Shown here in pieces: positions 33,659 to 54,253 of a stretch of DNA of 64,000 bases. Position numbers and translations under genes: made by a program. Within the stretch, counting starts at the first letter, position 1, and every line of letters begins with the position of its first letter. The notes under the pieces were generated by a model. The model made no database searches and was not told the origin of the DNA. It saw only the letters and a program-made list of their open reading frames with translations. Source of the stretch: Candidatus Gottesmanbacteria bacterium GW2011_GWA2_43_14 (GTDB lineage: Bacteria; Patescibacteriota; Microgenomatia; 2-02-FULL-39-11); the NCBI GenBank assembly GCA_000999095.1, contig LCFP01000003.1, positions 26,839 through 90,838 on the forward strand, given 5' to 3'.

Positions 33659-33727
33659 ATATTTTCTTACTTTTTGCGCCAAACCTGATTATTGCCGGGC
33701 TTATCGGCCTGGGGTTTCTGGGTTAAG

Positions 33728-35110: not shown

Positions 35111-35262
35111 AAATAAGAATAATACGGGAAAAAGATGAAAATAACTTAAAAAGATTCTTACATTTCTATTGGCCCTTTTTTACTCCATGCTCATCAAAAC
35201 GGATTACCATGACAATTCAATTAGAAATCTTAAGCAGAATAAAGGAGGTGAGAAAAGGCAAG

Positions 35263-35493
35263 ATGCGAAATTTATTTGCAGTTTTATTAATGGCAGTTAT
35301 GGTTGGTTTTGCGGGCAGTTCAGTTCTGGCGCAAACACCTACCGACACGACTAACAATACCACCAATAACACAACCGGAAACCTTACGGATAATGTGACA
35401 GAAAATACAACCGGAGAAGCCGGAGTGGGCGCAGCGCCTGAAGATGAACCTGACGGAGCTCCCAGCACAGGATTGGGTGGTATGCCCCATTAA
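35263..35493 (+). CDS. small secreted Asn/Thr-rich low-complexity protein (start at internal Met after SD)
   Basis: SD AAGGAGGTGAG upstream of MRNLFAVLLMAVMVGFAGSSVLA signal peptide; TNNTTNNTTGN low-complexity. Confidence 0.55.
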   Translation: MRNLFAVLLMAVMVGFAGSSVLAQTPTDTTNNTTNNTTGNLTDNVTENTTGEAGVGAAPEDEPDGAPSTGLGGMPH

Positions 35494-35572
35494 CCGTAAA
35501 TAAAACTAACAGAGATAAAGTATACATGAGGGTGGGAGATCCGCCCTCATGTACAAAGAATAGGATAACAAT

Positions 35573-38360: not shown

Positions 38361-38506
38361 CCCCCCTCGGTAGTCCGTTCAACTTAAGTTTATTAATTTA
38401 AAGCAGTTTCCGCAACCCTTTTCTTACCCAGGTCTTACCGACCGAAGAACCTCTGTTTACAGGTGACGGATATATTGTTTCCAGATTAAGAGGAGGTGAG
38501 TTTTTT

Positions 38507-38716
38507 ATGGCAACGGTAATTAACAATCCTGGTGAAAACAACAATTCATGGGGATATTCGGTCGGCGTGGTTCTATTGTTAGCCGTTGTTTTAATTTTTG
38601 TCATTTACGGCCTGCCTATCCTTAGACAATCTCAAATCGAACAGGCACCGCAAATCAATGTACCGGGTGAAATAGATGTCAATATCAATGAAGGACAGGG
38701 TGGCGGAGGTAATTAA
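38507..38716 (+). CDS. small single-TM protein, paralogue of 40921..41142
   Basis: Strong SD AAGAGGAGGTGAG; TM then Q-rich tail ending GQGGGGN; similar to the other copy (…GLPILRQSQIEQ… vs …GLPLIEQTGQLN…). Confidence 0.6.
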   Translation: MATVINNPGENNNSWGYSVGVVLLLAVVLIFVIYGLPILRQSQIEQAPQINVPGEIDVNINEGQGGGGN

Positions 38717-38751
38717 CATCTGACATATCGAAAGGGGGTGATGACCCAATC

Positions 38752-39006
38752 ATGAATATTTTATTATGGATTCTGTTCGGAGCATTAGCCGGCTGGATAG
38801 CTTCTCTGGTTATGAAGAATGATGCCAGTCAGGACATCCTTATGGATATCGTCATGGGTATTGCCGGTGCCTTGGTCGGCGGTTTCCTGATGCAATTGTT
38901 CGGCGTCCCCGGAGTCACCGGATTTAACCTGTACAGTTTATTGGTTGCCGTTGTCGGAGCCAGTATCCTGATTTATTTGGGAAGATTGTTGAGAAGAAGT
39001 GCATAA
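38752..39006 (+). CDS. GlsB/YeaQ/YmgE-family stress-response membrane protein (transglycosylase-associated protein)
   Basis: 84 aa; WILFGALAGWIAS…GIAGALVGG signature. Confidence 0.8.
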   Translation: MNILLWILFGALAGWIASLVMKNDASQDILMDIVMGIAGALVGGFLMQLFGVPGVTGFNLYSLLVAVVGASILIYLGRLLRRSA

Positions 39007-39078
39007 GTTATTAATTTTTTTACATACTCTGGGAGCCCCCAAAATATATAAGAGGCGGGCTCCCGGAAAACTGCTCTT

Positions 39079-39582
39079 ATGAATTTTAGATATATAACTT
39101 TATTTATTTTTATTGCCATGGTCGCCCTGTTATTTATGCCTGCCGAAAGTCTGGCCAATGAATGCGGTTTAATGAGCGAGTCCAGCTGTCTTATCAGAGA
39201 TAATACCCTCCACCGTTTTTCCCCGGAGGGTGTTATTGCCGATGATATGCAATTTAATTCCGGGGATGAAAAGATAAATTCCGAAAGTTCCGGCTTTGCG
39301 GAGCTGACCACTTTAAAGCCTGATTTTTCCGTTAAACAAATCTTTTCACCAGATGGCCAAATAATACAAACAACCAGCGTCGGACCTGCAGAGGATACGG
39401 AGCGGGCAAGTTATAGCGGTAAATCGCTCACCGTCACCGTCATTTCCGGCGGCAAGAAAAAAACTATACATGCTTATATGGCGGGAGGAATAATTAAAAC
39501 TTCATCTGATGCGGATGAATTTGAAGAATTGGATATATCATTTACAACGTCCACCAATGTCATCAATATCATCGGTCATTGA
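39079..39582 (+). CDS. secreted hypothetical protein
   Basis: Signal peptide …MVALLFMPAESLA; no motif. Confidence 0.5.
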   Translation: MNFRYITLFIFIAMVALLFMPAESLANECGLMSESSCLIRDNTLHRFSPEGVIADDMQFNSGDEKINSESSGFAELTTLKPDFSVKQIFSPDGQIIQTTSVGPAEDTERASYSGKSLTVTVISGGKKKTIHAYMAGGIIKTSSDADEFEELDISFTTSTNVINIIGH

Positions 39583-39597
39583 GAAGGGAAAATACAG

Positions 39598-39849
39598 ATG
39601 ATAGCTGCCATAGATTTTTTTTATATTGCCATAGGTTTCGGTTTTCTCATCGCTTCTGTCAGTCTAGCCGTGACGCTGGTCGCTTTAACAAGAACAGTCA
39701 TGGTTGCTAAAAAAATTATTGAGGATGTGGAGGATACAACCCGCGATATCAAACTGTTGAAAAGCGGACTTAAAGTCGGATTATTGTCAATGGCAACAAA
39801 AGTAATCGGTTATTTCGCTAATAAAAAGAGTCAAAATGAAAGGGGGTGA
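39598..39849 (+). CDS. small membrane protein, DUF948-like
   Basis: N-terminal TM then coiled-coil; classic neighbour of YtxH-like genes. Confidence 0.45.
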   Translation: MIAAIDFFYIAIGFGFLIASVSLAVTLVALTRTVMVAKKIIEDVEDTTRDIKLLKSGLKVGLLSMATKVIGYFANKKSQNERG

Positions 39850-40136
39850 ACAAAAGATATATGAACACAAATAATGTTAATAAAAATAATTCGGGAGGCA
39901 GTAAAATGCTGATTTCGGCAGCTTTAGGTGCTGCCTTCGGTGCGGCTGCGGTTGTACTGTCGGACAGAAAAAAGAGGGAAAAAATCAAAAAAGCCGTCGA
40001 CGAAATCATTACCAAAGGCAATCAGCAGATAGACAGGATCAGGGAAACCGCGGAAATCGCCACAGACAAGGGGCGGAAAATTCTTAACGACGAACTTGAC
40101 AAGCAGAAACATCTGATCAGCAAGAAATCAGAGTAA
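39846..40136 (+). CDS. YtxH-like general stress protein
   Basis: TM (MLISAALGAAFGAAAVVL) followed by amphipathic Lys/Glu helix; 4-bp overlap with upstream gene. Confidence 0.5.
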   Translation: MNKRYMNTNNVNKNNSGGSKMLISAALGAAFGAAAVVLSDRKKREKIKKAVDEIITKGNQQIDRIRETAEIATDKGRKILNDELDKQKHLISKKSE

Positions 40137-40216
40137 GGAAATTTTACGGCAGAAACCCGAAATAAAAAACAAACATCTTATTGTTTTTTTACTTCCTTCA
40201 ATGTCTAAATTAACCT

Positions 40217-40669
40217 TTGTTTGTTATGCTTCGGGCTATGTCAAAAAATTCCTTTCTTATTTTGACCGTGGGCTTGGCTGCATTGATACTTGTTATCGGT
40301 GCAACCGGTTTAAAGCGGGAGACTGACCTTAATAATTATGCGGTCGGCGGAGGCCCCCCTGAAGTAATTGAAAGTCCGACTCAAACAACAACGACAAGTG
40401 CAGTTATAGTGGTGTATTTAACTGCCGGTTATGAGCCGGTTATAGTTACTATCAGAAAGGGAGAAACCGTCAGTTGGATAAACAGGTCTGAAGAAATGAT
40501 GCAGGTGGCTTCAGATCCTCACCCCACCCATGACTTTTACCCGGGATTTGACCAGTTATACGGTGTCGGACAAGGCCAGACGTATACTTTTACTTTTGAT
40601 AAACCCGGAATTTGGAATTACTATAATCATTTAAATCCGGCACATGCAGGCAGGATTGTCGTTATCTGA
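40217..40669 (+). CDS. membrane-anchored cupredoxin-like domain protein
   Basis: …VIVTIRKGETVSWINRSEEMMQVASDPHPTHDFYPGF… plastocyanin-like beta-sandwich pattern; no Cys copper ligand seen. Confidence 0.4.
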   Translation: MFVMLRAMSKNSFLILTVGLAALILVIGATGLKRETDLNNYAVGGGPPEVIESPTQTTTTSAVIVVYLTAGYEPVIVTIRKGETVSWINRSEEMMQVASDPHPTHDFYPGFDQLYGVGQGQTYTFTFDKPGIWNYYNHLNPAHAGRIVVI

Positions 40670-40808
40670 AAATCAGCTTAATTTCTTACACAGCTCTTAC
40701 CGGTCCGGCCGATTAATCTTAAACCCCTCCCATAAACTCTCATTTGTTGAAGATGCTGTTACAGGAATTTTCCATAACATACTCATCTTCTCTAAATAAA
40801 CTTTAAAC

Positions 40809-40849
40809 GCTTTCGAATAGCCAATTTGACTATCGAAAGCGTTTTTTTA
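40809..40849 (+). terminator. rho-independent terminator
   Basis: GCTTTCGaATAG-loop-CTATCGAAAGC stem followed by GTTTTTTTAT. Confidence 0.6.
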
Positions 40850-40920
40850 TATAACATTTCTTACCGCTATCTTATCAGCCTGAAGAGTTTTTTTAATGCC
40901 CCCAAGTTAGAATATGGGGT

Positions 40921-41142
40921 ATGGTAAATAAATACCCCCAGGCAGCTGAAAAGGAAGAAAATATAGGTTTCCTCTCGGGAATAATGATTTTGATTGTAGC
41001 CGTTTTCCTGTTTTTGTATTTCGGTTTGCCCCTGATTGAACAAACAGGACAGTTAAATACGATGTTAAATGAAGAGCAGGGGGTGGGCGGAAATTTTTAT
41101 GTGCCTGAAGAATTTGCGGTCCATGAAAATAGTCTTAAATAG
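40921..41142 (+). CDS. small single-TM protein, paralogue of 38507..38716
   Basis: TM then Q/E-rich tail with GVGGN; preceded by TCTTACC direct repeat. Confidence 0.5.
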   Translation: MVNKYPQAAEKEENIGFLSGIMILIVAVFLFLYFGLPLIEQTGQLNTMLNEEQGVGGNFYVPEEFAVHENSLK

Positions 41143-41233
41143 TGAGTTGGGTAAATCTTCTTACCGTAAATTTACATAATTCTCACGTTCTACTTACGGG
41201 ATTTAAATACCCTCAATTTATCCTTTTATTTGC

Positions 41234-43786
41234 ATGATACCGGGAAAAGTGGCTATGATTTCTCCAGCTCACCTTGACTTAGTCATAAACAGTATTGCAG
41301 AAGGTATTACCGTTCAGGATATGCGAGGAAACTTAATTTACGTAAATGAGGCAGCTGCCAGATTGACTGGTTTTAAGAGTGCAAAAGAGTTGCTTTCAAC
41401 ACCGCGCGAAAAAATCCTGGAAAAGTATGAATTGCTGGATGAAGCCAGGCGGCTTATACGCGCAGGCCGTTTGCCGGGAAGAATGGTAATCAGTTCGGGA
41501 AAACCCCAGGAGGAAGTCATTCAGTTTCGGATACTCGCAACCGGCGAAAAACGGTGGTCGACCGTTAAATCCAGACCGGTTAACGATAAACAAAAAAAAC
41601 TGAAGGTCATCGTAAATGTTTTCAGGGATATTACCCGTGAAAAAGTTACCCAAGACCAATTGATACATAAGATCAGACAGCAGGAATCAGTTTCCCTATT
41701 GGGGCAAAAATCGCTGGAAGGTGCATCAAGCAGTAAAATCATGCAGTTTGCCCTGGAAATTCTCTCCCTGCGGCTGCCTATTGAATACTCGAAAATCGCT
41801 CGGATGGATGACGACGGTAAAAGCCTGCTAATAATCTACGGAAAAGGCTGGAGGAAAGGGAATATAGGGACAGTTCGCGAGGCAAGCGACATATATTCTC
41901 CGGCAGGATATACCCTGAAATCGAGGAAACCGGTGATCATGAATAACTTGGCTGAGGAAAAAAGGTTTAAAATTCCGGCTTTTCTCAAAGATCACGGGAT
42001 AAACAGCGGAATGAGTGTCATAATTCATGGTGAGCAGAAACCCTTCGGAGTTCTCGGAGTCTATTCCAATTCAGCAGTCAAATTCAACCGCGATGACATT
42101 TATTTCCTGTCCCAGGTCTCAAATATAATCGCGGAAAGCATAGAGGGGGAAAAGAAAGTAGAAGAGATAAAATTCCAGACAAAACTAATAAATGCTGTTG
42201 AAGAGGCAGTAATTGCAACTGATCCGGATGGGAAAGTAATTTTTTGGAATGACTATGCTTCAAAACTATACGGCTGGAAAATGTCGGAAATGAAAGGTAA
42301 AAATTTAATGAAAATAATTCCCGATTGGGAGAAAAATAAAACAAAATTTGCCATGGCCGCCGTTAGAAAATCCGACAGCTGGTCCGGAGAAATGCAACTT
42401 CTCAATAAAAACGGCAAAGTCTTCACTGCCTCGGTTTCTGATTATCCGGTCATGGGAAATAACGGAAAACTTATTGGTATGGTGGGTGTTTCCCGAAATA
42501 TTTCAATAGAAAAACGGCAGGAAATAAGTCTGCTGTTTTTGGAAAGGGCCACTGCCATGATGGGTTCATCATTGGAATACGAGAAAACATTAGCGGAAGT
42601 TTGCCGCCTCGCCGTTTCTGAATTTTGCGAGTGGTGTGTAGTTGATTTATGGGAAGACGGTAAATTAAGACAACTCTCGGTCAGCCATTTCCGGAAATCG
42701 ATGGTTGATAAAGCCCTGATTTTTCAAAAACAATACCCACCGAACTTAAATAAAACTGAAGGCAGGCTGATAATTGCCCGAAGCGGAAAACGCATATTCA
42801 TACCTGAAATTAATAAGTTGATGTTAAAGAAATATGCCATGTCTGCCGAACAGCTGAAGCAGTTGGAATCTTTTAATTTTAACTCTTACATAGGAATTCC
42901 GATCAAATACCAGGAAAAAACATTAGGCGTCCTAAGTTTTATCAACACCGGGGGAAACAGAATTTTTTCAAGGGCGGATTTATCAATAGCCCAAAATGTA
43001 GCTAACCGGGCCGGTGTAGCCATCGAAAACGCCAGATTGTACAACCTGGCGCAGGAAAAGATAAGTGAAAAGGAAGAGATAGAAAAAAGAAAGGATGAAT
43101 TTATATCCATTGCTTCTCATGAGTTGAAAACACCTTTAACTTCAATCAAAGCCTTCACCCAAATTCTGTTAAAGAGCGTGTCTGACGACGAAATCAAACA
43201 TAAGAAATATCTCACAAGAATGGACCAGCAGCTGGACAAGCTGACAGAACTCATAAATGATCTTCTGGATGTTTCCAGAATTAAATCAGGAGTGTTGGAG
43301 CTTCGGGAGGAAATTTTTCCCCTGGATATATTTGTCAGGGAAGTCGTAGAGGATGTGGCCAGCATTGTACCCAATAATGACATAGTCGTTGTCGGCAGGA
43401 CAGGCAGGCTGATCAAATCGGATAAAAATAGAATCAGCCAGGTGCTCACAAATCTATTAACCAATGCCGGTAAGTATTCTCCAAACGGCCGCGAAATCCT
43501 GGTCAGGCTTGATTATTCCGACAAGGAGGTCACTATTCATGTGGAAGATTTCGGGATAGGTATTGCTAAAAACAAAATAAATAAAATATTCCAAAGGTTT
43601 ACCAGGATCAACAATCCGAAAAATGAAAAATCTCCCGGTTTAGGATTGGGCCTTTACATATCATCCCAAATCATCAACCGGCTGGGAGGGGAACTCCGTG
43701 TTAAAAGTGAACCAGGAAAAGGTTCCGTTTTCAGTTTCAACCTGCCTACTCTTAAAGAAAAGCAACTGTTATTATCATATAATTAA
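41234..43786 (+). CDS. cytoplasmic multi-domain sensor histidine kinase (PAS-GAF-PAS-GAF-HisKA-HATPase)
   Basis: No TM; H-box ISIASHELKTPLTSIKAF; HATPase G1/G2 (GLGLGLYISSQII…GGEL). Confidence 0.8.
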   Translation: MIPGKVAMISPAHLDLVINSIAEGITVQDMRGNLIYVNEAAARLTGFKSAKELLSTPREKILEKYELLDEARRLIRAGRLPGRMVISSGKPQEEVIQFRILATGEKRWSTVKSRPVNDKQKKLKVIVNVFRDITREKVTQDQLIHKIRQQESVSLLGQKSLEGASSSKIMQFALEILSLRLPIEYSKIARMDDDGKSLLIIYGKGWRKGNIGTVREASDIYSPAGYTLKSRKPVIMNNLAEEKRFKIPAFLKDHGINSGMSVIIHGEQKPFGVLGVYSNSAVKFNRDDIYFLSQVSNIIAESIEGEKKVEEIKFQTKLINAVEEAVIATDPDGKVIFWNDYASKLYGWKMSEMKGKNLMKIIPDWEKNKTKFAMAAVRKSDSWSGEMQLLNKNGKVFTASVSDYPVMGNNGKLIGMVGVSRNISIEKRQEISLLFLERATAMMGSSLEYEKTLAEVCRLAVSEFCEWCVVDLWEDGKLRQLSVSHFRKSMVDKALIFQKQYPPNLNKTEGRLIIARSGKRIFIPEINKLMLKKYAMSAEQLKQLESFNFNSYIGIPIKYQEKTLGVLSFINTGGNRIFSRADLSIAQNVANRAGVAIENARLYNLAQEKISEKEEIEKRKDEFISIASHELKTPLTSIKAFTQILLKSVSDDEIKHKKYLTRMDQQLDKLTELINDLLDVSRIKSGVLELREEIFPLDIFVREVVEDVASIVPNNDIVVVGRTGRLIKSDKNRISQVLTNLLTNAGKYSPNGREILVRLDYSDKEVTIHVEDFGIGIAKNKINKIFQRFTRINNPKNEKSPGLGLGLYISSQIINRLGGELRVKSEPGKGSVFSFNLPTLKEKQLLLSYN

Positions 43787-43793
43787 ATTTAAT

Positions 43794-44186
43794 ATGAACG
43801 GAAAGAAGCATATTCTGATTGTTGACGATGACTCGGCAATTCTTGATGTCATTCAGATCATTCTCAATGACGCCGGATATGCGACCCATATCATTTCAGA
43901 CGGGGATCAGGTGAGAAATTTCCTTAACAGGCAACGGGTGGATTTAATTCTTCTTGATATCTGGATGTCAGGCATGGACGGATCGGAAATTACAAAAATG
44001 CTGAAAGATGATAATGGCACTAAAAGCATCCCCGTTATCATGATTTCGGCCAACAATCAGGGGATGAATATTGCCAAGTCTTCCGGAGCTGACGGTTTTA
44101 TCGCTAAACCGTTCGAAATTGACCAACTTTTAAATGTGGTAGCCAAATTTATCAACGGAAAAAAGCTTTTAACCGAAAACTACTAA
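43794..44186 (+). CDS. single-domain response regulator (CheY-like receiver)
   Basis: ILIVDDD…DLILLDIWMSGMDG…KPF; start at internal ATG 7 nt after kinase stop. Confidence 0.75.
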   Translation: MNGKKHILIVDDDSAILDVIQIILNDAGYATHIISDGDQVRNFLNRQRVDLILLDIWMSGMDGSEITKMLKDDNGTKSIPVIMISANNQGMNIAKSSGADGFIAKPFEIDQLLNVVAKFINGKKLLTENY

Positions 44187-44367
44187 GACTGCTGCGAAAA
44201 AAGGGATGACTACAGTCACTACGCTGATAAAAATTTTGTTAAGCATATTTGCTTATCTTGCCATAAACGCATAAACCGGACTTCAGAAGTTCTGTAATAA
44301 AATAATAATAAATTTTTTCTTACAAATCTCTTACCCTCAAACTTATATATTTTATTAAAAATACCTC

Positions 44368-44397
44368 TTGACATACCGCAAAAGCTGATGGTATATT
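44368..44397 (+). promoter_or_regulatory. sigma70-type promoter (TTGACA-18 nt-TATATT) for GH18 gene
   Basis: Near-consensus -35/-10 with 18-nt spacer about 60 nt upstream of start codon; TCTTAC repeats 33 nt upstream of -35. Confidence 0.55.
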
Positions 44398-44456
44398 GGC
44401 AACTCTCTTAAGGTAATAAAAAAGTTAAAAACATGTAAGGAATTGTTAAGAAACAA

Positions 44457-45776
44457 GTGCCTGTCCAAAAACTAATCAGCAAATTATCGCAAAATAAAGA
44501 AAAATATTTAATCTTTGCCCTGATTGAATCAATACTTCTCCTCCTCCTATTTATTCACCGCTTAACTGACGTAAAACAAATCTTAAGTCCGCTTGTTTTT
44601 CCGGATACAGCCAACCAGGAAAGAATCCTGCAGAAAAACCAACGCGAAGTATTCGGATTCGCACCTTATTGGGTATTTGACCGGCGATTGGATAATGTTG
44701 ATTTCAGCGTCCTGACTACATTCGCTTATTTCGGTATTGACGTACTGGATACAGGCTACCTCAATAAAAAAAATGATGCCTACCGCGTCTTTAACAGTCG
44801 TAGGGCAACCGATATTTTCAGTAAGGCGCATCGGAACGGTACCAAAGTAGTTTTGACTTTGACCCAGATGGATAACGCGACCATCACAAAATTTCTGGAT
44901 AATCCGTCCGCCTGGAAAAGATCCTCAACCGAAGCTGCAGCCGAAGTGAAACGCCGGGGGATCGACGGAGTCAATGTTGATTTTGAATATGTCGGCAATC
45001 CTGGTTCGAGCTACCGCCGGAAATTCAGCGATTTTGTCCGGATTCTGACAACGGAGATGCACAGGAATCTGCCTGACTCCCGGGTTACTGTTTCCGTTTA
45101 TGCTTCATCAGCCAAGGAACCCAAGCTTTATGATATCGGCGCTTTAGCCAATGACAGTGACGGCATTTTCATGATGGCCTATGATTACGCCACAACAACG
45201 GCCGAAAAGGTAATGCCTACTTCGCCTCTTTACGGTTATAAAGAAGGAAAATACTGGTATGATGTATCGACAGCCATCGAGGATTTTCTGAAAGAGATGC
45301 CGGCGGAAAAGCTGATTTTGGGAGTACCCTGGTACGGTTACAATTATGCGGTAGCTTCTCCTGAAATTAATGCTTCTGTCAACCGCGGATATTATACCTG
45401 GCGGAGAATCGGCAGGCGGAATATAAGAGTTTTTAATCCCCAAAGAGGAACAGCCCAGACATATTCGGCCCTTAAAAATAAAATCAGCGTCACGCCCCAA
45501 GAAGGAGAAACTTTACTTTCCGGATGGGACGATATCGGCCAGGTCGGCTGGCAGGCATACAAGAGCAGAGGAGTCTGGAGAATGATTTTCATCGAAGACA
45601 GCCGTTCTCTGGGTGTGAAATACGATTTTGCCATAAGCAAGAATTTGGGCGGGATAGGTATTTGGGCTTTGGGTTTTGACCAGGGAGGTGAATTTTGGCA
45701 GGTGCTGGCTGAAAAGTACGGACGCAAATTGGCCGAAAACAACCGTGTCAGTAAAAAAATAAATAAGAATATATGA
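44457..45776 (+). CDS. glycoside hydrolase family 18 (chitinase/peptidoglycan hydrolase-like)
   Basis: DGVNVDFEY catalytic DxxDxDxE motif; N-terminal TM; GTG start. Confidence 0.75.
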   Translation: MPVQKLISKLSQNKEKYLIFALIESILLLLLFIHRLTDVKQILSPLVFPDTANQERILQKNQREVFGFAPYWVFDRRLDNVDFSVLTTFAYFGIDVLDTGYLNKKNDAYRVFNSRRATDIFSKAHRNGTKVVLTLTQMDNATITKFLDNPSAWKRSSTEAAAEVKRRGIDGVNVDFEYVGNPGSSYRRKFSDFVRILTTEMHRNLPDSRVTVSVYASSAKEPKLYDIGALANDSDGIFMMAYDYATTTAEKVMPTSPLYGYKEGKYWYDVSTAIEDFLKEMPAEKLILGVPWYGYNYAVASPEINASVNRGYYTWRRIGRRNIRVFNPQRGTAQTYSALKNKISVTPQEGETLLSGWDDIGQVGWQAYKSRGVWRMIFIEDSRSLGVKYDFAISKNLGGIGIWALGFDQGGEFWQVLAEKYGRKLAENNRVSKKINKNI

Positions 45777-46858
45777 AAGATTTTGAAGTTAAATTCGATC
45801 TAACTTACGATAAACAGAAATTCAGGACGCTAAACTGGAAAATATTTCTGGTAAGCATGGCCGTATCCGCCCTGCTCTCAGTGTTCACCTCCTCTATTCC
45901 CCGAATCAGCCTTCTGTCACCGGCTATCGATAATATGCGGATTGATGTATTTTCCGTTGTTTTGCCGAAACTTAAAGAAATACCCAATGAATTCATACTC
46001 CGTAAAAAATCTTCTTTGGTTTCCTCGGCTTATGCCACAGGAGAGTTGGATAAGGCGAAAGCCTACGGTATTATCAATTTTGAAACGGGAGAAATAATCA
46101 GGGAGAAAAACCTGGATAAAATACTGCCGATTGCCTCTTTGACCAAAGTCATGACAGCTGTGGTTGCAATGGACCTGGCAGATAAAGATGAAACATTTAC
46201 CGTCTCAAGGAATGCTGCCAATAAGATTCCAACCAAAATCGGGGTAGTGCCCGGCCAAAAACTCTCCCTCGAAGAACTTTTGAATGCTCTCCTTTTGACC
46301 AGCGCCAATGATGCGGCTGAAGTTATAAAGGAAGGCATTGACAGTAAATACGGGGCTGAAATATTTATCAGAGCCATGAATGCCAAGGCTGAATTTTTAG
46401 GACTCCGTCACAGTACTTTCCAGAATCCCCAGGGATTTGATGCGCCAAATCACTATTCCAGTGCCGGTGATATGACTGTTTTAAGCCATTATGCGTTGGA
46501 AAATTATCCAGTGATATCACAAATCGTGGTCAAGGACTTTCAAAGACTGTCACAAACCAGGCAGCACAAAAAATACGACCTTTATAACTGGAACGGCCTG
46601 ATCGGGGTATACCCTAATGTTTTCGGAGTAAAGATCGGTTATACGGGAAAAGCCGGGAAAACAACCGTTGTCGTATCCCAAAGGGACGGCGTTAAAATTA
46701 TGGCAGTTGTTCTGGGAGCGCCGACGGTTCTCGCGCGCGACCTCTGGGCGGGGCAGGCATTGGACATTGGTTTTGAAGAAACGGCAGGCCTGCCTGCCAT
46801 AAATATTTCCGAGCAGCAATTAAAAGCGAAATATTTGACCTGGAATAACTGGCCATAA
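45773..46858 (+). CDS. D-alanyl-D-alanine carboxypeptidase (S11, PBP5/DacA-like)
   Basis: SxxK (ASLTK), SxN (TSAND) and KTG-like motifs; 4-bp overlap with GH18 gene. Confidence 0.75.
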   Translation: MKDFEVKFDLTYDKQKFRTLNWKIFLVSMAVSALLSVFTSSIPRISLLSPAIDNMRIDVFSVVLPKLKEIPNEFILRKKSSLVSSAYATGELDKAKAYGIINFETGEIIREKNLDKILPIASLTKVMTAVVAMDLADKDETFTVSRNAANKIPTKIGVVPGQKLSLEELLNALLLTSANDAAEVIKEGIDSKYGAEIFIRAMNAKAEFLGLRHSTFQNPQGFDAPNHYSSAGDMTVLSHYALENYPVISQIVVKDFQRLSQTRQHKKYDLYNWNGLIGVYPNVFGVKIGYTGKAGKTTVVVSQRDGVKIMAVVLGAPTVLARDLWAGQALDIGFEETAGLPAINISEQQLKAKYLTWNNWP

Positions 46859-46924
46859 CTTCTTTCTTACCAACTCTAACTATCTCCTTTAAATGAAACA
46901 TCCATAATCTGAAAACGCTAACCT

Positions 46925-48865
46925 ATGACCAAATTCAGGCTGACAGTTTTTTTTTGCGGTTTTTTATCTTTCATTATATTTATTGCCGTTTTGACATACC
47001 TGAATTTCCACAGTGTTTACCGCTTCAAGGAGAAACTGCTTCAGTATAACGACCGCGGACTGATACTGTTTGATGTGGCCGGCAGGCCATTTTTTGAATT
47101 CGGTGAATCAAAAGTCAGACAATACATCTCATGGCAGGAAATTCCAAAGTATGCAAAAAGCGCGGTTGTGGCTGCCGAAGACAAAGATTTTTACCGGCAT
47201 CCGGGTTTTTCAGTTAAAGCCATAGCCAGGTCAATATGGAAAAATTTAAAATCAGGCTCTATATCCTACGGAGCCTCCACTTTGACGCAGCAATTGGTCA
47301 AAAATAACCTTTTATACCAGGATAAGAAACTGCTCAGAAAATACCAGGAAATTCTTATCGCTTTGCTTTTGGAACAACGCTACTCCAAAACTGAGATTCT
47401 GGAAATGTATTTGAACAGTGTTTATTTCGGCCAGGGTGCCTGGGGCATCGGCGAGGCTGCTGAAACCTATTTCGGGAAAAATGCCCATGATCTGACTCTG
47501 GCTGAAACGACTGTTTTAATAGCTGTTTTGCCTTCACCTTCACTTTACGACCCTTTAAAAAGTGACAACTATAAAAAGCGCCAGCAAACCACCCTATCAA
47601 GCATGGTCGAGCAAGGCGCAATTACCAGGGAAATGAAAAGTCAGGCGTTAGCGGAAAAGCCCGATTTTCAAAATCAGACTTCCAAGTTAAACAAGAATGC
47701 CCCTCATTTTGCCCTGATGGTTCGTGATTTTTTAAAGGAAAAATGGGGAGAGAGGGCGGAAAGTTCGGGCTGGAAAGTGCAGACTACTTTAAATCTTGAC
47801 TGGCAGAAATTTGTAGAAAATGATCTCAAGAACCAGGTGATCTTGTTAAAGCAAAAAAAGGTTTCCAACGGCGCCGCTGTAGTTTTGGACACACGAAGCG
47901 GGGCTGTCAGAGCTTTGGCGGGCAGTTACGATTGGAATGACAACCGCGTCGGCCGGATTAATATGGTTTTAAAACCCCGGCAATCGGGATCAGCCTTTAA
48001 ACCGCTGGTTTATCTGGCGGCACTTGAGGCCGGCTGGCTTACACCAGCCTCTATCCTTAATGACCGGCCTGCAAACTACAGTACGCCAACTGGTTTTTAC
48101 AAGCCTAAAAATTACGACCGGCGTTTCCGGGGTAATGTAACCGTAAGACGAGCCCTGGCTAATTCTTTAAATGTACCGGCCGTTGAAGTCATGTCTAAAT
48201 TAGGCGTTTATGATGCTCTCCGGTTTGCAGGTAAAATGGGTATTACCAGTTTAAAAGGAGCTGACAACTACGGCCTCTCTTTGGTCTTGGGCACCGGGGA
48301 AGTCAGCCTTCTGGAGCTGGCCGGAGCTTACTCTGTTTTGGGCAATAACGGCAGTTTGCATAATACATTTACGGTTATCTCCATAAGGGACAATCAGAAC
48401 AGAGAGATCTACCGGGTAAAGGATAAACCGCAACAGGTCGTAAGTCCGGAATCATCTTATTTGGTCACTTCCATTTTGTCGGATGAAAAGACTAGACGGG
48501 AAATTTTCGGCCGCCTGCTGGATACGGATACCCCTGCAGCTGTCAAAACCGGCACAACCGATGATTACCGTGATTCGGTGACTGCAGGATACACTCCTTT
48601 TATCACAGCAGCTGTCTGGGTAGGCAACAATGACAACAGTCCCATGACGGCAGTAGCCGGTTCATTGGGGGCAGCTCCTGCCTGGAAAAAGATAATTGAC
48701 GGTTTATCAAAAAGTTTTCCTGTCACGGATTTTTCCCCTCCGGAGTCTGTTGTGAAATTGAAAGTCTGTTCACCTGCCGGATTTTCGGAGCCAAATGCGG
48801 AAACAGGTGGAGGCAAAGTAGAATATTTTATGGCCCAAACGGCAAACCGCATTAAAACGTGCTAG
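46925..48865 (+). CDS. class A penicillin-binding protein (GT51 transglycosylase + transpeptidase)
   Basis: GT51 motif AAEDKDFYRHPG; SGSAFKP (SxxK); KTGTTDD. Confidence 0.85.
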   Translation: MTKFRLTVFFCGFLSFIIFIAVLTYLNFHSVYRFKEKLLQYNDRGLILFDVAGRPFFEFGESKVRQYISWQEIPKYAKSAVVAAEDKDFYRHPGFSVKAIARSIWKNLKSGSISYGASTLTQQLVKNNLLYQDKKLLRKYQEILIALLLEQRYSKTEILEMYLNSVYFGQGAWGIGEAAETYFGKNAHDLTLAETTVLIAVLPSPSLYDPLKSDNYKKRQQTTLSSMVEQGAITREMKSQALAEKPDFQNQTSKLNKNAPHFALMVRDFLKEKWGERAESSGWKVQTTLNLDWQKFVENDLKNQVILLKQKKVSNGAAVVLDTRSGAVRALAGSYDWNDNRVGRINMVLKPRQSGSAFKPLVYLAALEAGWLTPASILNDRPANYSTPTGFYKPKNYDRRFRGNVTVRRALANSLNVPAVEVMSKLGVYDALRFAGKMGITSLKGADNYGLSLVLGTGEVSLLELAGAYSVLGNNGSLHNTFTVISIRDNQNREIYRVKDKPQQVVSPESSYLVTSILSDEKTRREIFGRLLDTDTPAAVKTGTTDDYRDSVTAGYTPFITAAVWVGNNDNSPMTAVAGSLGAAPAWKKIIDGLSKSFPVTDFSPPESVVKLKVCSPAGFSEPNAETGGGKVEYFMAQTANRIKTC

Positions 48866-48874
48866 TATAGATGA

Positions 48875-49060
48875 ATGGTTAAAGGGGACTTTGCACTGAA
48901 AAAATTACGGCATGACATCAAAAATTATTTGACGGTGATAAGATTAAATCTGTTTTTACTGAAAAAGGATTTACCTCCGGAAAAAGAACAGTTTGCAGTC
49001 AAGATTGAGGAAAAATTGGAGCTGATTTTACGGGACCTGGAAAAAAGCAAAAAAGGATAA
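48875..49060 (+). CDS. 61-aa protein with H-box-like motif (possible stand-alone DHp/phosphotransfer helix hairpin)
   Basis: …LRHDIKNYLTVIRLNL… resembles HisKA H-box; no ATPase domain. Confidence 0.3.
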   Translation: MVKGDFALKKLRHDIKNYLTVIRLNLFLLKKDLPPEKEQFAVKIEEKLELILRDLEKSKKG

Positions 49061-49066
49061 AACGGT

Positions 49067-49738
49067 TTATTCTTTGATGACGTAACCGAATCCGCGAACG
49101 GTATTAATAAGAAGCTTTTTGGAGTTTTGATCGATTTTTTTCCTTAAATAACCGATGTAGACATCAACTACCCGGGGCTCAATATAGTCAGCCGTCAGCC
49201 AGATGCGTTGAAGAATCATGTCCCTTGTCAGTACCCGTCCGGCATTAATCATCAGATACTGCAGGAGCTCATATTCCTTATGGGAAAGGCTTATTATCCG
49301 GTCACCCCTTTTTACCTCAAAGGTTTTGGTATTAAGCTCCAGGTCTGCAACTTTGAGGGATGTGCCGTTATGCTCCAAGTGGCGCAGCCTGGCTTTTATC
49401 CGGGCGATGAGCTCTTCGCCTTTGAAAGGTTTGGTAATGTAATCATCAGCACCCAGATTTAATCCTTTAACGATATCGGTCACATCATCTTTGGCAGTGA
49501 GAATGATAACCGGGAGGTCGGGAAACTTTTTTCTGATTTCCGTCATGACTGATTCACCGCTTAATTTGGGCAAACCCAAGTCCAGGATGACCAGGTCCGG
49601 CCGGCGGCTTTCCACCAGATCCAGAGCTTTTACACCGTCCGGTGCTTCTACTACTGAATAGCCTATATCAAGGAGTAAAGTGTTGATGTATTTGCGGATG
49701 TCATTGTCGTCTTCAATAACCATTACCGTTTTGATCAT
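49067..49738 (-). CDS. OmpR/PhoB-family response regulator (receiver + winged-helix)
   Basis: VMVIEDD…DLVILDLGLPKLSG…; C-terminal wHTH …RVLTRDMILQRIW…VDVYIGYLRKKI. Confidence 0.85.
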   Translation of the reverse strand: MIKTVMVIEDDNDIRKYINTLLLDIGYSVVEAPDGVKALDLVESRRPDLVILDLGLPKLSGESVMTEIRKKFPDLPVIILTAKDDVTDIVKGLNLGADDYITKPFKGEELIARIKARLRHLEHNGTSLKVADLELNTKTFEVKRGDRIISLSHKEYELLQYLMINAGRVLTRDMILQRIWLTADYIEPRVVDVYIGYLRKKIDQNSKKLLINTVRGFGYVIKE

Positions 49739-49784
49739 AGGGGAATCATTCTAACACATTCTTACAATTTGTAAATCGGCAAGT

Positions 49785-50201
49785 TCAGCTTTTTGAAGGG
49801 TCAGGAACAGGGTTGACCTGGTTATTATCGAGTAGCGTGAAAAAATTATTAATTTCATTAACTATGTCTTTCGGGACGAGGTGGGCTTTTAAAAAAAATC
49901 CTTCAGCTCCGATTTTAAAGGCTTTTTTGATAATTTCATCCTGGCCCAAATTTGTAATCAGAAAAACGGGTGTGTTTTTGTTTTTAGATTCAGGTTTTTT
50001 TATTTCGATCAGGACATCAATACCGGTGACTTTTGGCAGCATGATATCCAAAAGAATCACGTCAAATATTTGCTGGGAAATCTTGTTTTCCGCTTCAGCG
50101 CCGTCTATCGCCAGAGTTACATCATATCCGGCTTTGCAGAACGCCCGTTCATACAGTTCCCTGATAAACTCCTCATCTTCGACAATCAGGACTTTCTTCA
50201 T
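49785..50201 (-). CDS. single-domain response regulator (CheY-like receiver), paralogue of 57553..58092
   Basis: VLIVEDEEFIRELY…DVILLDIMLPKVTGIDVL…. Confidence 0.8.
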   Translation of the reverse strand: MKKVLIVEDEEFIRELYERAFCKAGYDVTLAIDGAEAENKISQQIFDVILLDIMLPKVTGIDVLIEIKKPESKNKNTPVFLITNLGQDEIIKKAFKIGAEGFFLKAHLVPKDIVNEINNFFTLLDNNQVNPVPDPSKS

Positions 50202-50206
50202 ATCCT

Positions 50207-52498
50207 TTACTTTAACAGAATACCATTCATATTCACCTGTGACAACTTATCACCGGTTTTTATTTCATTAAAATGTTTAATACTGTCATCCGTCAAAATC
50301 GGCAGGGCAAAATAAAAAGTAGAGCCTTTACCCAATTCACTCCGGACCCATATATTTCCGTGATGCATCTCGATTATTGATTTGGAAATGAATAAGCCTA
50401 GCCCGGTCCCTTTTGACCCCTGTTCCAGCGCTCCCGACACACGGTAAAATTTGCTGAATAATTTCGGAATGGCTTCCTTGGGGATTCCCTGTCCGGTATC
50501 CATGATGGAAACAACCAGTCTTGACTTGCCGTTTATGTCGGGATTAGATTCGATTGACTCCTTTACCTTTATTGTGCCCCCCGATTGCGTGTAAGCGACA
50601 GCGTTTGACAAAAGATTTGACAGTACCTGGGAAATGCGGAAGCTGTCCGCCAAGACATGAGGAAATTTGGTAGTCAAGGGCAGGTATTCAACCGTTTGAT
50701 TTTTTGTGTGGGCAATTTCTTTAAACCCGGATACGGTATTGGAAATTGTTTCGCTCAGGTCTACGGGACTGACATCAACTTTAAAAGCATCCCGTTCAAT
50801 CCGGGCGACATTCAACAGATTGTCTATCAGGCTGTTTAAATTTCTGGTGCTGACGACCAGACGTTCAACATACCGCTTGTGTTCATCAGACAGTTGCGGG
50901 GCAATTTCGTCGCTGATGATCTGCACGTATCCCCTGATTGAAGTCAGCGGCGTCCGAAGTTCATGGGCTGCCATCGAGACAAAATCCACTTTCATCTCTT
51001 CAAGCTTTAATTCTTCGGTCACATCATGAACAGTTATAATGCAGCCTAAATTTCCGGCCCGGCTTTCGGTGATTTTGCCGGTCACCAGATTGACGCATGA
51101 CTCTTTTTGGTTAGCGACTAATCTGAGATTTTTTTTGTTAAAGATGACTCCTTCAAACGTATCATTACGGATAGGGGCATATCTGTCCGGCAGCAATTCT
51201 TCCTCTTTGTCATAAAGCCTGAAAACCTCCTTCAGGTACCGGCCGATCACCTGTTTCGATTCAGTCCCGGTGATTTTTTCGGCGGCCGAGTTAAATTGTG
51301 TTATACACTGATTCAGATCCGTGGCGATAACTCCGTCCTCGATTGCCGAAAGGATGACCGCCAGTTTATTCCTTTCGGAAGATATATTTTCTTTTTCCCG
51401 CTCCAGCTGGGAGCGGTTTGTTTTCAACTGTAAAGCCATGATATTGAGGCTTTTACCCAAATCTTCTATTTCATCCCCGCTGGTTATTTCCACTTCGGTA
51501 TCCAGATTTCCCTGCTTAATCAGATCGGTAAAATAAATAAGCTTGAGAATCGGCTGGATAAAGCGGGTGCTTAATACAATCGAACTTGCGACCAGCAACA
51601 ATAATGAGAAAGCGGCGGTCGTGAAGTAAAGATTTCGCAACATGGTAAGCTGGGCGAATATTTCCGCTTCCGGCTGTTCGACAACGACTATCCACTCCAA
51701 TCCGGGAATTTTTAAGCTGTCGGAAACGACGCGGACATTGTCTTCGTTGGTATAGACATCCGATGATTCAGGTAAAAGCTGTTCATTGTCCTCACCAGAG
51801 TCCAATTGCCGCTTGATTACCGGTCTGTCTGAAAAATTCGGTCCGGACAGGACAAGTTCGTGCTTGGGATGCATAATCAGACGGCCTTCATCATCAACTA
51901 CATAGGCAAACCCGCTTTTTCCAAGCTTCACCTGGGCAATAACGTCCGACAGCCTGTCTAACCGAAGCTGGCTTTTAACTACACCTGCAACCAAACCCAG
52001 TTCGGATACTACCGGAGTAAAAACTGAAAGATAGGGCATAGAGTCTGATTCGGAAAAATAAACTTTGGAGACGGCTGTTCTGCCGGATAAAGCGGACTTA
52101 AAAGGATCAGTCGGGATTTCAATGCTGAGGTTTTCGTCCCTTGAGACAGAATATCTGTCGGCTTTAATTAATTCCCTGCCGGTTGGGGATAAAATGCTGA
52201 TATTCTGGTAGAAAAATTTTTGGCGGATTGAGTATTTTATGACTTCGACAACTTTGTCCGGGTCAGATTCATAGTTCAGCTGAAATTCGCGTCCTATACC
52301 CAAATGGTCCAATTCAATTGACGAAGTCAGATTATTAATATATGAGGCGGCATCCCGGGCTTTCTCCTTTAGGATTTGGTTATTCTGGTTGCGGATGTAC
52401 TTTTCCGTGAGTTTAAATCCGAATGTCTGGGAAATGAAAAAGAGAACAAGAACTACGGCATATCCCAGGAGAATTTTGCTGCGGATAGACAGTTTCAT
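50207..52498 (-). CDS. membrane sensor histidine kinase with extracytoplasmic Cache-like and PAS domains
   Basis: Two TM flanking about 270-aa sensor domain; HAMP-like; H-box [16 protein letters not shown]; HATPase. Confidence 0.85.
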   Translation of the reverse strand: MKLSIRSKILLGYAVVLVLFFISQTFGFKLTEKYIRNQNNQILKEKARDAASYINNLTSSIELDHLGIGREFQLNYESDPDKVVEVIKYSIRQKFFYQNISILSPTGRELIKADRYSVSRDENLSIEIPTDPFKSALSGRTAVSKVYFSESDSMPYLSVFTPVVSELGLVAGVVKSQLRLDRLSDVIAQVKLGKSGFAYVVDDEGRLIMHPKHELVLSGPNFSDRPVIKRQLDSGEDNEQLLPESSDVYTNEDNVRVVSDSLKIPGLEWIVVVEQPEAEIFAQLTMLRNLYFTTAAFSLLLLVASSIVLSTRFIQPILKLIYFTDLIKQGNLDTEVEITSGDEIEDLGKSLNIMALQLKTNRSQLEREKENISSERNKLAVILSAIEDGVIATDLNQCITQFNSAAEKITGTESKQVIGRYLKEVFRLYDKEEELLPDRYAPIRNDTFEGVIFNKKNLRLVANQKESCVNLVTGKITESRAGNLGCIITVHDVTEELKLEEMKVDFVSMAAHELRTPLTSIRGYVQIISDEIAPQLSDEHKRYVERLVVSTRNLNSLIDNLLNVARIERDAFKVDVSPVDLSETISNTVSGFKEIAHTKNQTVEYLPLTTKFPHVLADSFRISQVLSNLLSNAVAYTQSGGTIKVKESIESNPDINGKSRLVVSIMDTGQGIPKEAIPKLFSKFYRVSGALEQGSKGTGLGLFISKSIIEMHHGNIWVRSELGKGSTFYFALPILTDDSIKHFNEIKTGDKLSQVNMNGILLK

Positions 52499-52502
52499 TC
52501 AT

Positions 52503-53420
52503 TTATTCCAGCCATTTCTGCTTCAGTAAAACCAGGTACCCCTGTTGTCTCAGGCTGTTCAGAGCAGTATTAATTTCCGCGATCAAATCATCCTCATTTT
52601 TCCGGAAGACCACACCGTATTCTTCCTCCGTAAAGGGTTCTCCCGCTATTTTAAGTTCCTGATTACTGTCAACAATTCCTTTGGCATTGGTCAGATCGGT
52701 GATAATGGCGTCGGCTTCCCCTTTTATCAACGCATCAGTAGCTCCGATAAAATCGTCAAAAAGAAGTACTTGATCGGGAGGGGCAGCCTTGAGAGCTTCA
52801 TCTTCACTGGTGGTTCCCTTTTGAACGGCTATCCTTTTAGCCGACAAATCATTTTCCGACTTGATGGAGTTTTCTGTTTCCAAAGTGATGATCACCTGGC
52901 CGGCATTTAAATAAGGAATGGAAAAATCAACGGTTTGTTTCCGTTCTTCATTGATGGTCACGCTCGAGAGGATAATGTCGGCTTCCCTCCTGTTCAAAGA
53001 ATTGAAAATGTCATCAAAGAGAATTGATGAGAATTCAGCTTTAACACCAAGCTTTTCGGCAATTTTATTCCCCAAGTCGATATCATATCCGGCCATCATT
53101 TGGTTGTCATCAACAAATTCCATCGGAGGATATGTTGCGTCCGTGGCGATAATGATTTTCCCGGCATTTTTAATGCGTTCTACATTCGGCAGGGACGGCT
53201 TTTCCTCCACCACCAGTTTTCTGCTTAGGGAACTTATGTAAAATAACCCGGCCCCTAATAAAACGATGAACCATAAACCAAGCACAATCAGCCATAAGTG
53301 ATGCCGTTTCGGTACGACAGGGGGTTGGGAAGGAATAGGGGAAGCGGCCGAAAGGACGGAGGACGGTTCAGGAGGGACAGTTTGATCCTGATCGGACGGC
53401 ATACTTTTACCATATATCAA
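52503..53420 (-). CDS. membrane-anchored family-3 solute-binding protein (amino-acid ABC-type SBP fold), likely kinase co-sensor
   Basis: Pro-rich N-terminus + TM then SBP_bac_3-like domain; stop 4 nt from kinase start. Confidence 0.6.
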   Translation of the reverse strand: MIYGKSMPSDQDQTVPPEPSSVLSAASPIPSQPPVVPKRHHLWLIVLGLWFIVLLGAGLFYISSLSRKLVVEEKPSLPNVERIKNAGKIIIATDATYPPMEFVDDNQMMAGYDIDLGNKIAEKLGVKAEFSSILFDDIFNSLNRREADIILSSVTINEERKQTVDFSIPYLNAGQVIITLETENSIKSENDLSAKRIAVQKGTTSEDEALKAAPPDQVLLFDDFIGATDALIKGEADAIITDLTNAKGIVDSNQELKIAGEPFTEEEYGVVFRKNEDDLIAEINTALNSLRQQGYLVLLKQKWLE

Positions 53421-53665
53421 TCACTTCGTTGCGTCAATTGTTTTTTACTTAAATCTCATAATCTATCCGGTAGCTTATTACATCCAGAGTATAACATCTG
53501 TTAGCCCATTTTTTTTCCGTTCCTACGCCAGAAATTAACAGTAATTACTCTTTCTTCTTACTGTCATCTTACATTTTTCTGCCTGGTGTCTAATTTCCTG
53601 AAATTAGTATTTTCATTCCTAATAAAAAATTCAAACATAAGGAGAAAGGAGGTGAAAAAAAACAA

Positions 53666-54253
53666 ATGAAGAAAGCTATTGGATCAATGGCCTTTGCAGC
53701 CGGACTGCTTCTGATGAGCGGTGTCCCTGCCATGGCCAAGGAATACTGCGGTAATAAAATTACAGGCCCTTTCAGTTATAACCGCTGCAAAATCGATAAT
53801 GAAAAGAAAATTTATATCGATTTAGATCAAAGAGCCAAGGTTAAGAATTATGTTCATACCGATTTCAATACCGGAAATAATTCGGAATACACAACCAAAG
53901 CCAAAGGAGGTCACACAAGCGGTGATGTTGATGCTGATGTAAAAATATACAATGACGTTAACAGCGCTAATCTCCTTATAGCACAGGGCGGAGACGGTAA
54001 CGGACAAAAAGGAAGTAATTATGTTACCGGTCCGTTTTCTCTAAACACAGTCGAAATAAAAGACAAAGCCAAGATTGACGTGGATTTGAATCAGAACGCG
54101 TATGTTAAAAACGATGTCACTGTCAACGCGAATACCGGAAGTCAATGCAAATTTACCACAATTTGCAACACCGGAAGTTCAGGCGACATTGATTCGGACG
54201 TGAAGATTGTAAATAAAGTTAACGATGCGGTATTGACTGTTGTTCAAAACTAG
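53666..54253 (+). CDS. secreted protein with two tandem ~70-aa repeats
   Basis: Strong SD GGAGAAAGGAGGTG; signal peptide; repeat (NKITGPFSYNRCKID…DVDADVKIYNDVNSANLLIAQ vs NYVTGPFSLNTVEIKD…DIDSDVKIVNKVNDAVLTVVQN). Confidence 0.65.
   Translation: MKKAIGSMAFAAGLLLMSGVPAMAKEYCGNKITGPFSYNRCKIDNEKKIYIDLDQRAKVKNYVHTDFNTGNNSEYTTKAKGGHTSGDVDADVKIYNDVNSANLLIAQGGDGNGQKGSNYVTGPFSLNTVEIKDKAKIDVDLNQNAYVKNDVTVNANTGSQCKFTTICNTGSSGDIDSDVKIVNKVNDAVLTVVQN

Follow-up and report, generated by a model that had tools for sequence, protein, structure and literature searches.

A 64,000-nucleotide stretch of a Candidatus Gottesmanbacteria genome (the window, throughout) carries a recurrent intergenic direct repeat, two copies of TCTTAC[C/A] set 11 bp apart, which likely serves as the operator for a response regulator of the OmpR/PhoB family, most probably the product of 49067-49738 in the same DNA. 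We favor this reading because the repeats are phased at 11, 22, and 33 bp, are conserved in related genomes, stand at a fixed distance from predicted -10 elements, and accompany the regulator gene. The host is an uncultivated member of the Microgenomates, within the candidate phyla radiation. An initial annotation of this DNA had listed eight paired sites and two single copies and had named an OmpR-family regulator, likely this one, as the binder; all of the listed copies lie where it placed them, and geometry, conservation, position, and regulator association support its proposal. The features in question are as follows.

38422 to 38439, + strand: putative high-affinity dimer site TCTTACCcaggTCTTACC, exact match, 23.1 bits
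40684 to 40701, + strand: dimer site TCTTACAcagcTCTTACC, exact match, with an extra half-site TCTTAA at +33 (40717)
40806 to 40853, + strand: terminator-like hairpin, AAACGCTTTCGAATAG...CTATCGAAAGCGTTT and then a T run, recognized from the sequence
40859 to 40876, + strand: dimer site TCTTACCgctaTCTTATC, with -10 TAGAAT at 40908-40913
41159 to 41202, + strand: four degenerate units in 11-bp register (TCTTAC, ATTTAC, TCTCAC, ACTTAC), upstream of the PAS/GAF kinase gene 41234-43786
44318 to 44335, + strand: dimer site TCTTACAaatcTCTTACC, exact match, upstream of the GH18/DacA/PBP1A operon (44457-48865)
46865 to 46881, + strand: weaker pair at 10-bp spacing, TCTTACCaacTCTAACT, 16.7 bits
49748 to 49775, - strand: promoter-like site of the regulator gene, TTTACA-16 nt-TAGAAT with TG before the -10, recognized from the sequence
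53556 to 53573, + strand: dimer site TCTTACtgtcaTCTTACA, exact match, with -10 TAGTAT at 53605-53610
35156 to 35183, + strand: weak site, a strong half-site TCTTACA with TTTTAC at +22, upstream of the genes for a secreted 94-amino-acid protein and a sortase (35209-36142)

A count of coding against intergenic and of tandem against single copies, proposed in the initial annotation and carried out here within the window, separates the arrangement from the word. By itself the hexamer TCTTAC shows no enrichment in the window, with 27 copies where 23.4 are expected, and the 7-mer TCTTAC[CA] shows a weak one (19 against 12.2 expected, with 4 of 100 shuffles reaching 19), whereas the tandem TCTTAC-N5-TCTTAC with up to two mismatches has 18 matches against 4.36 ± 2.0, a number that none of 100 dinucleotide shuffles reaches; the signal is therefore the tandem arrangement. 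The description of the repeat as almost exclusively intergenic holds for the tandem form, since every window pair of 16.5 bits or more is intergenic although intergenic DNA makes up only about 5% of the window (judged from a greedy call of open reading frames, which cover about 95%), but not for the single 7-mer, 7 of whose 19 window copies fall in coding DNA. Exact tandem copies number four (38422, 40684, 44318, and 53556), and when all hexamers repeated exactly at 9 to 13 bp are considered, only TCTTAC at 11 bp reaches four, the others reaching two at most. Pairs with no more than one mismatch in total number five at 11 bp, two at 10 bp, and three at 22 bp, with none at 12 to 17 bp in the window, and every one of them is a direct rather than an inverted repeat on the + strand. 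The spacing of 10 to 11 bp given previously is borne out, with a peak at 11 bp and with the pairs at 46865 and 49750 at 10 bp. The flanks of the window copies are unrelated to each other.

To follow the repeat beyond the window, we used 11 loci fetched around orthologues of the window regulator (L081 to L087 and L168 to L171) and eight GH18 loci from related metagenome-assembled genomes (MAGs; L001 to L007 and L050). The regulator orthologues from genomes named Candidatus Gottesmanbacteria by NCBI share 77 to 88% identity with the window protein and those in Levy-, Davies-, and Roizmanbacteria 61 to 68%; the nearest GH18 relatives, at 48 to 57% identity, include MAGs named Davies-, Blackburn-, and Levyibacteria. 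A half-site weight matrix with a pair threshold of 17 bits, from whose construction L084 to L087 and L168 to L171 were withheld, finds at 11-bp spacing 5 matches in the window, 17 in L081 to L087, 6 in L001 to L007 and L050, and 7 in L168 to L171, which form an independent set; most other spacings yield 0 to 2, and a second peak stands at 22 bp. GH18 loci from outside the Microgenomates, a 987-kb control, contain no match at 11 bp. A further 769 kb around 80 paralogous OmpR-family regulators contain 2 matches; these paralogues come from a metagenome scan with the regulator alignment, all have 35 to 45% identity among the matches listed, and they serve as a negative control only. The orthologous loci have about 82 sites per Mb, compared with about 1 per Mb in the 1.76 Mb of control sequence; by a count from the gene tables, 32 of the 35 sites are directed at a gene start no more than 350 nt away.

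The conservation check named in the initial annotation gave a positive result, in that the motif recurs ahead of orthologous genes in the related genomes, and it does so while the regulators themselves are only 61 to 88% identical. The genes concerned in the window, with domains assigned by Pfam, are as follows.

41234-43786, + strand: PAS/GAF histidine kinase
44457-45776: GH18
45773-46858: S11 carboxypeptidase (DacA)
46925-48865: class A penicillin-binding protein (PBP1A)
49067-49738, - strand: OmpR-type regulator (REC and Trans_reg_C)
49785-50201, - strand: receiver (REC)
50207-52498, - strand: dCache kinase
52503-53420, - strand: solute-binding protein

A strong pair stands ahead of the GH18 gene in the window and in L081, L082, L083, L004, L005, L006, and L170. 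The regulator gene is convergent with the GH18/DacA/PBP1A operon in L081 to L083, as it is in the window, and divergent from it in L170, where the regulator is 61% identical; in Levybacteria a DacA/PBP1A operon has a site at L086 8102. Small transmembrane (TM) and Transgly_assoc targets carry sites in the window (38422) and in L083 (18090 and 17901), L082 (17401), L084 (11485), and L087 (6653), and kinase genes do so in the window (41159), L083 (17026), and L086 (2077). The orthologue of the secreted repeat protein in L081 (9239-9832) is preceded by three units (9938/9927) with a -10 offset identical to that of the window site at 53556, which itself precedes the gene for a 195-amino-acid secreted repeat protein (53666-54253) in the region divergent from the regulator operon. 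The weaker pair at 46865, 60 nt ahead of the PBP1A start at 46925, possibly marks an internal promoter; its counterpart in L081 (12907, 15.8 bits) lies 63 nt before the PBP1A start.

Each half-site reads T-C-T-T-A-C-[C/A] and usually has a T before it. Within the seed set T1, T3, T4, and A5 vary little or not at all, and position 2 among the 42 seed half-sites is C in 35, T in 5, A in 2, and G in none. Two further regularities played no part in the selection of sites. Of 26 sites, 6 have an extra half-site at +33, for which the background rate is 0.4%, and a -10-like hexamer begins exactly 31 nt past the 18-mer in 10 of 31 sites, where the mean over offsets 0 to 69 is about 1 (the hexamer is TAnnnT with at least four of six matches to TATAAT, and the promoters are predicted ones). 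Three more such cases in the independent set (L168 9955, L170 18805, and L171 10673) bring the total to 13.

Four window promoters belong to this 31-nt class. The pair at 38422 starts an array of four 11-bp units (38422-38465) and has its -10 (TATATT, 38471-38476) 31 nt past the 18-mer; it precedes the small-TM gene 38507, beyond which the + strand carries a Transgly_assoc gene (38752), the gene 39079, and DUF948-like (39598), YtxH-like (39846), and cupredoxin-like (40217) genes. The pair at 40684, with -10 TAAACT at 40733-40738, lies between the stop codon of 40217-40669 and the hairpin at 40806, and no protein gene intervenes between the site and that hairpin. The pair at 40859 precedes the small-TM gene 40921-41142, a paralogue of 38507 (both have an orthologue at L083 17618), and the fourth is the pair at 53556. 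Alignment of the promoters of this class shows four 11-bp units, then 5 nt, then the -10, without a -35 consensus. The first two units are strong, the third is degenerate, and the fourth has a weak TcTTAt pattern. Numbering the -10 hexamer -12 to -7 places the strong pair at about -61 to -44 and units 3 and 4 in the position of a pho box, ending 9 to 10 nt ahead of the -10; transcription would then start near 38483, 40745, 40920, and 53617 in the window. A PhoB-like placement of the -10 at 10 nt after the strong pair was considered and proved not to be general, the recurrent offset being 31 nt. The GH18 promoters form a second class, in which the pair lies 29 to 33 nt upstream of a conserved TTGACA / 17-18 nt / TATATT; in the window the site at 44318 is 32 nt upstream of a near-consensus promoter with TTGACA at 44368-44373, an 18-nt spacer, and TATATT at 44392-44397, and the same layout is found in L081, L082, L083, L006, and L170.

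The regulator at 49067-49738 is a 223-amino-acid protein with a REC domain and a Trans_reg_C winged helix, and it is the only Trans_reg_C or winged-helix match in the 64-kb window. It is the final gene of an operon that runs from 53420 to 49067 and encodes the solute-binding protein, the dCache kinase, the receiver protein, and the regulator. Besides regulator orthologues, the fetched orthologous loci contain no Trans_reg_C proteins; near the GH18 genes, L004 has one regulator orthologue and L006 two. In L081, L082, L084, L085, L087, L168, L170, and L171 a site is found no more than about 200 bp ahead of either the regulator gene or a short gene preceding it, and in L085 and L087 reverse half-sites lie near the regulator -10. 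Twelve orthologues, otherwise 61 to 88% identical, share an unchanged recognition helix, E-x-RVVDVY-x-GYLRKK, an invariance that matches the conservation of the motif.

The window copy at 49750, between the regulator and receiver genes, differs from the other pairs. The initial annotation had read it as a pair, of which the TCTTACA half stands as the only clear half-site, while the TCTAAC half coincides with the -10 box of the regulator gene (TAGAAT on the - strand) seen from the other strand. The spacer of this promoter contains a reverse half-site, GTAAGA, and its -10 ends 9 nt ahead of the ATG at 49738. The small-TM gene 40921 and the regulator genes have in common a good -10 that ends 7 to 9 nt before the ATG and no Shine-Dalgarno sequence, whereas neighboring genes do have strong AGGAGGTG sites; a -10 box (TG-n-TAAAAT or TAGAAT) stands near the regulator ATG in L081 to L084 too. 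The arrangement suggests that both mRNAs are leaderless, that of 40921 because its ATG is only 7 nt past the -10 of the site at 40859. As for the two single copies, that at 35156 has a partner (TTTTAC at +22), and a half-site lies upstream of the homologous pair of genes, for a 58-amino-acid protein and a sortase, in L082; the copy at 33665 was rejected, being a single half-site with no partner between convergent genes, and is probably due to chance.

From the sequence we infer the following scheme of binding, phosphorylation dependence, and regulatory direction. The phosphorylated regulator would bind two TCTTAC[C/A] half-sites, 11 bp apart, as a head-to-tail dimer, and at most target promoters the strong pair would occupy about -61 to -44. 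Two weaker units continue the 11-bp register up to about 10 nt before the -10 where no -35 consensus is found, and a second dimer is probably recruited to these proximal units, with activation that would be PhoB-like, as at tandem pho boxes. At the GH18/DacA/PBP1A operon, with its pair about 30 nt upstream of a consensus promoter, the regulator may modulate rather than create promoter activity, and at its own promoter, where the reverse half-site in the spacer suggests autoregulation, it may repress.

Several observations weigh against this model. L169 and L083 have no site near the regulator gene; about 20 kb were covered per related genome; and the matrix was seeded from sites chosen by their likeness to TCTTAC, which makes the counts for L081 to L083 and L004 to L006 partly circular. 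The GH18 site, at 29 to 33 nt from the -35, keeps no strict helical phase and precedes a consensus promoter that should need no activator, and in L004 the pair lies just downstream of the -10 box of a TTGACA/TATACT promoter, which looks like repression.

The coverage of about 20 kb per genome, the absence of a strong site near the regulator genes of L169 and L083, and the two regulator orthologues of L006, which show that paralogues exist in the group, would all fit real operators bound by another protein, either an OmpR/PhoB-family paralogue or a tandem-binding factor encoded outside the window. We regard this as unlikely because the regulator gene tracks the sites closely, adjoining target promoters in the loci of at least eight genomes, and because the paralogous loci lack the motif (2 matches around 80 regulators); the regulator is moreover the only Trans_reg_C gene in 64 kb, and its recognition helix is invariant across the lineages that share the motif. 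It is about equally improbable that the 49067-49738 protein does bind but serves chiefly to repress or block transcription instead of activating it in the manner of PhoB. The L004 promoter, the half-site in the spacer of the regulator's own promoter in the window, the position of site 40684 between a stop codon and a terminator, and the consensus character of the GH18 promoter would suit such a role, whereas 13 sites with a -10 exactly 31 nt on and no -35 bear the signature of activator dependence, and one would expect the sites of a repressor to cover the -35/-10 region or the transcription start, not to stop at -44. Repression may thus apply at some sites, such as those of L004 and the regulator's own promoter, but does not suit the 31-nt class.

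There is very little likelihood that the repeat, instead of being a protein operator on DNA, acts as an RNA signal in the 5' leader or as a promoter for an alternative sigma factor. Its orientation matches that of the downstream gene in 32 of 35 cases, and repeats lie 40 to 200 nt from start codons, as such a signal might; but the GH18 repeat is upstream of a conserved -35/-10 and would not be transcribed from that promoter, the repeat is upstream of the predicted -10 at 13 promoters, a pair of identical hexamers at 11 bp, with echoes at 22 and 33 bp, is unlike a -35/-10 pair, copies upstream of the regulator gene are reverse oriented, and the window has no Rfam match. An origin by chance, from the composition of AT-rich intergenic DNA, or as the remnant of a mobile repeat agrees with the lack of enrichment of the hexamer alone but is refuted by the spacing controls, in which almost nothing turns up in the same sequences when the matrix is applied at other spacings, as well as by the tandem count that no shuffle reached, the unrelated flanks, and the copies conserved ahead of orthologous genes in distant genomes.

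Under the preferred reading, in which the regulator at 49067-49738 binds the tandem repeats and mostly activates, a close parallel in promoter layout is PhoB. At tandem pho boxes of the Escherichia coli pstS type, the proximal box ends about 10 nt before the -10 and replaces the -35. The repeats described here resemble this system in having 7-bp direct repeats with a 4-bp spacer, in 22-bp boxes arrayed in helical register, and in having promoter-proximal units that end about 10 nt ahead of the -10, in the place of the -35. They differ in the half-site (TCTTAC[C/A] here, CTGTCAT for PhoB) and in that the strong pair is distal and the proximal units are degenerate; in contrast to the Pho regulon, no phosphate-uptake genes are among the targets seen in the part of each genome covered.

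The nearest solved relative of the regulator is PhoP of Mycobacterium tuberculosis (PDB 5ED4, E = 1.7e-46), which binds as a cooperative tandem dimer to 7-bp direct repeats (TCACAGC) with a strict 4-bp spacer (PMC4832192). The 7+4 geometry is shared. Of the PhoP residues that contact bases (PMC4832192), V213, Y217, and Y220 are conserved here as V190, Y194, and Y197, whereas the three central ones, N212, E215, and S216, are R189, D192, and V193; with three of six contacts kept and three changed, the comparison fits the same docking frame with another sequence preference. The motif, TCTTACC against TCACAGC, differs in sequence, and the biology and lineage also differ.

The WalR consensus, TGTWAH-N5-TGTWAH (PMC9210968), has the same hexamer-N5-hexamer direct-repeat form, and TCTTAC fits five of its six positions. 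Like WalR (YycF) of the Firmicutes and MtrA of the Actinobacteria, the regulator is an OmpR-family protein highly conserved over a large lineage, with peptidoglycan-remodeling enzymes among its predicted targets. The G at position 2 of the WalR consensus, however, occurs in none of the 42 seed half-sites; nor is there a WalK-type partner kinase, the neighboring kinase varying between genomes and not being WalK-like. The regulator reaches no NCBIfam equivalog cutoff, the scores being the following.

PhoB (TIGR02154): 202.1 bits against a cutoff of 296.2
MtrA (NF040689): 194.5 bits against a cutoff of 300
RpaB: 190 bits against a cutoff of 330
YycF (NF040534): 182.4 bits against a cutoff of 340

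Because no NCBIfam equivalog fits, we rejected filing the regulator under a named family, whether PhoB, WalR, MtrA, RpaB, or CseB, all of whose equivalog cutoffs are missed. By regulator score, motif, and targets, the predicted regulon is not the Pho, WalR, or MtrA regulon.

The predicted regulon is conserved over Gottesmanbacteria and neighboring Microgenomates lineages and would comprise peptidoglycan enzymes, small membrane and stress-type proteins, the secreted repeat protein, and kinase and receiver genes. The initial annotation had proposed a cell-envelope stress regulon. The envelope and signaling character of the targets agrees with it, but the word stress does not carry over, since the target list, including the Transgly_assoc, YtxH-like, and DUF948-like genes, supports envelope homeostasis only. 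A broader proposal, which we put forward tentatively and think possible though doubtful, is that the regulator is a lineage-wide master regulator of the envelope in Microgenomates, a counterpart of WalR/MtrA, with its own, apparently leaderless promoter, with kinases that vary by genome and possibly act via a small stand-alone DHp protein described below, and with a regulon that includes a small RNA (40745-40853).

To our knowledge, almost nothing is known of regulation in candidate phyla radiation bacteria, because such bacteria cannot be grown alone, and our literature searches found no two-component regulon described for the candidate phyla radiation. The regulon outlined here would be the first predicted for a regulator of this kind in the group. 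It supplies a motif, a named regulator, a promoter architecture, and a conserved target list centered on peptidoglycan synthesis and remodeling, and the motif could help in annotating promoters and small genes of such bacteria. The mechanism proposed is textbook OmpR/PhoB and would thus hold no surprise for specialists in two-component systems; the value lies in a testable regulon for an uncultivated lineage, the mechanism itself being conventional.

Beside the regulator gene, and convergent with it, lies a gene for a stand-alone DHp/HisKA hairpin protein of 58 to 69 amino acids with the H-box HD[IVL]KNxLTVI. It often overlaps the 3' end of the regulator gene and is present in all five Gottesmanbacteria-type loci.

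Window 48875-49060, + strand: DHp protein, 61 amino acids
L081 10692-10865, - strand: DHp protein
L082 10674-10883, - strand: DHp protein
L083 10662-10865, - strand: DHp protein
L084 10662-10838, - strand: DHp protein

Against Pfam HisKA the protein scores 26.5 bits, with a cutoff of 26.9. The copies are 33 to 42% identical to each other, and the gene therefore looks maintained; its product may work with the regulator, in phosphotransfer or as a phosphatase. Its similarity to the neighboring GAF kinase of Levy- and Daviesbacteria is too weak to make a case for descent from it.

The unit that follows the cupredoxin-like gene consists of a strong site, a -10 at +31, about 105 nt, a hairpin AACGCTTTCG..., and a T run, and it occurs in the following places.

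Window 40684-40853: site-to-hairpin unit
L081 16039-15890, - strand: site-to-hairpin unit
L083 18090 to about 17950, - strand: site-to-hairpin unit

The hairpin arm is conserved in L081 and L083, and the unit has no conserved open reading frame in the window, L081, or L083. The predicted transcript, at about 40745-40853, folds into two hairpins (-29.1 kcal/mol, z = -5.2), and the hairpin at 40806..40853 would end either this transcript of about 105 nt or the upstream operon. We consider 40745-40853 a candidate regulator-dependent small RNA; the Rfam search of the whole window, this candidate included, returned no match. Another strong site, at L085 9918-9935 on the - strand, also has its -10 at +31 and is directed away from the regulator gene, facing about 250 nt without a called gene beside a tRNA-Arg gene on the opposite strand. 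The open reading frame called in L085 at 9471-9677, which covers that tRNA gene (9540-9613), looks spurious. A tRNA scan of the whole window found none.

The window sites lie in a dense island of cell-envelope genes that extends from 33065 to 57234. Its left part holds genes for a YkuD L,D-transpeptidase (33065), an SLT lytic transglycosylase (33728, - strand), and MsrA (34275, - strand); its middle the genes for the secreted 94-amino-acid protein and sortase (35209-36142), BacA/UppP (36814, - strand), and GH18/DacA/PBP1A; and its right part those for a second PBP1A (54313, - strand) and DsbB (56686). Elsewhere in the window, three degenerate units in 11-bp register (TCTTGC, TCTTAA, TTTTAC) stand at 12237-12264 in a divergent region upstream of a gene for a 1,153-amino-acid multidomain glycosyltransferase (12311-15772). 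We did not accept them as a site, since they fall below the threshold and the first unit has a G at the invariant A; they may represent a weak site. A strong site (9796) lies upstream of a glycosyltransferase operon in L082.

Among the MAG contigs, L004, L006, L007, L009, and L050 bear the title "uncultured Gammaproteobacteria," labels that look wrong. Most of them carry GH18 genes whose nearest named relatives are Microgenomates, and L004 and L006 also carry regulator genes and the operator motif, again with Microgenomates as the nearest named relatives.

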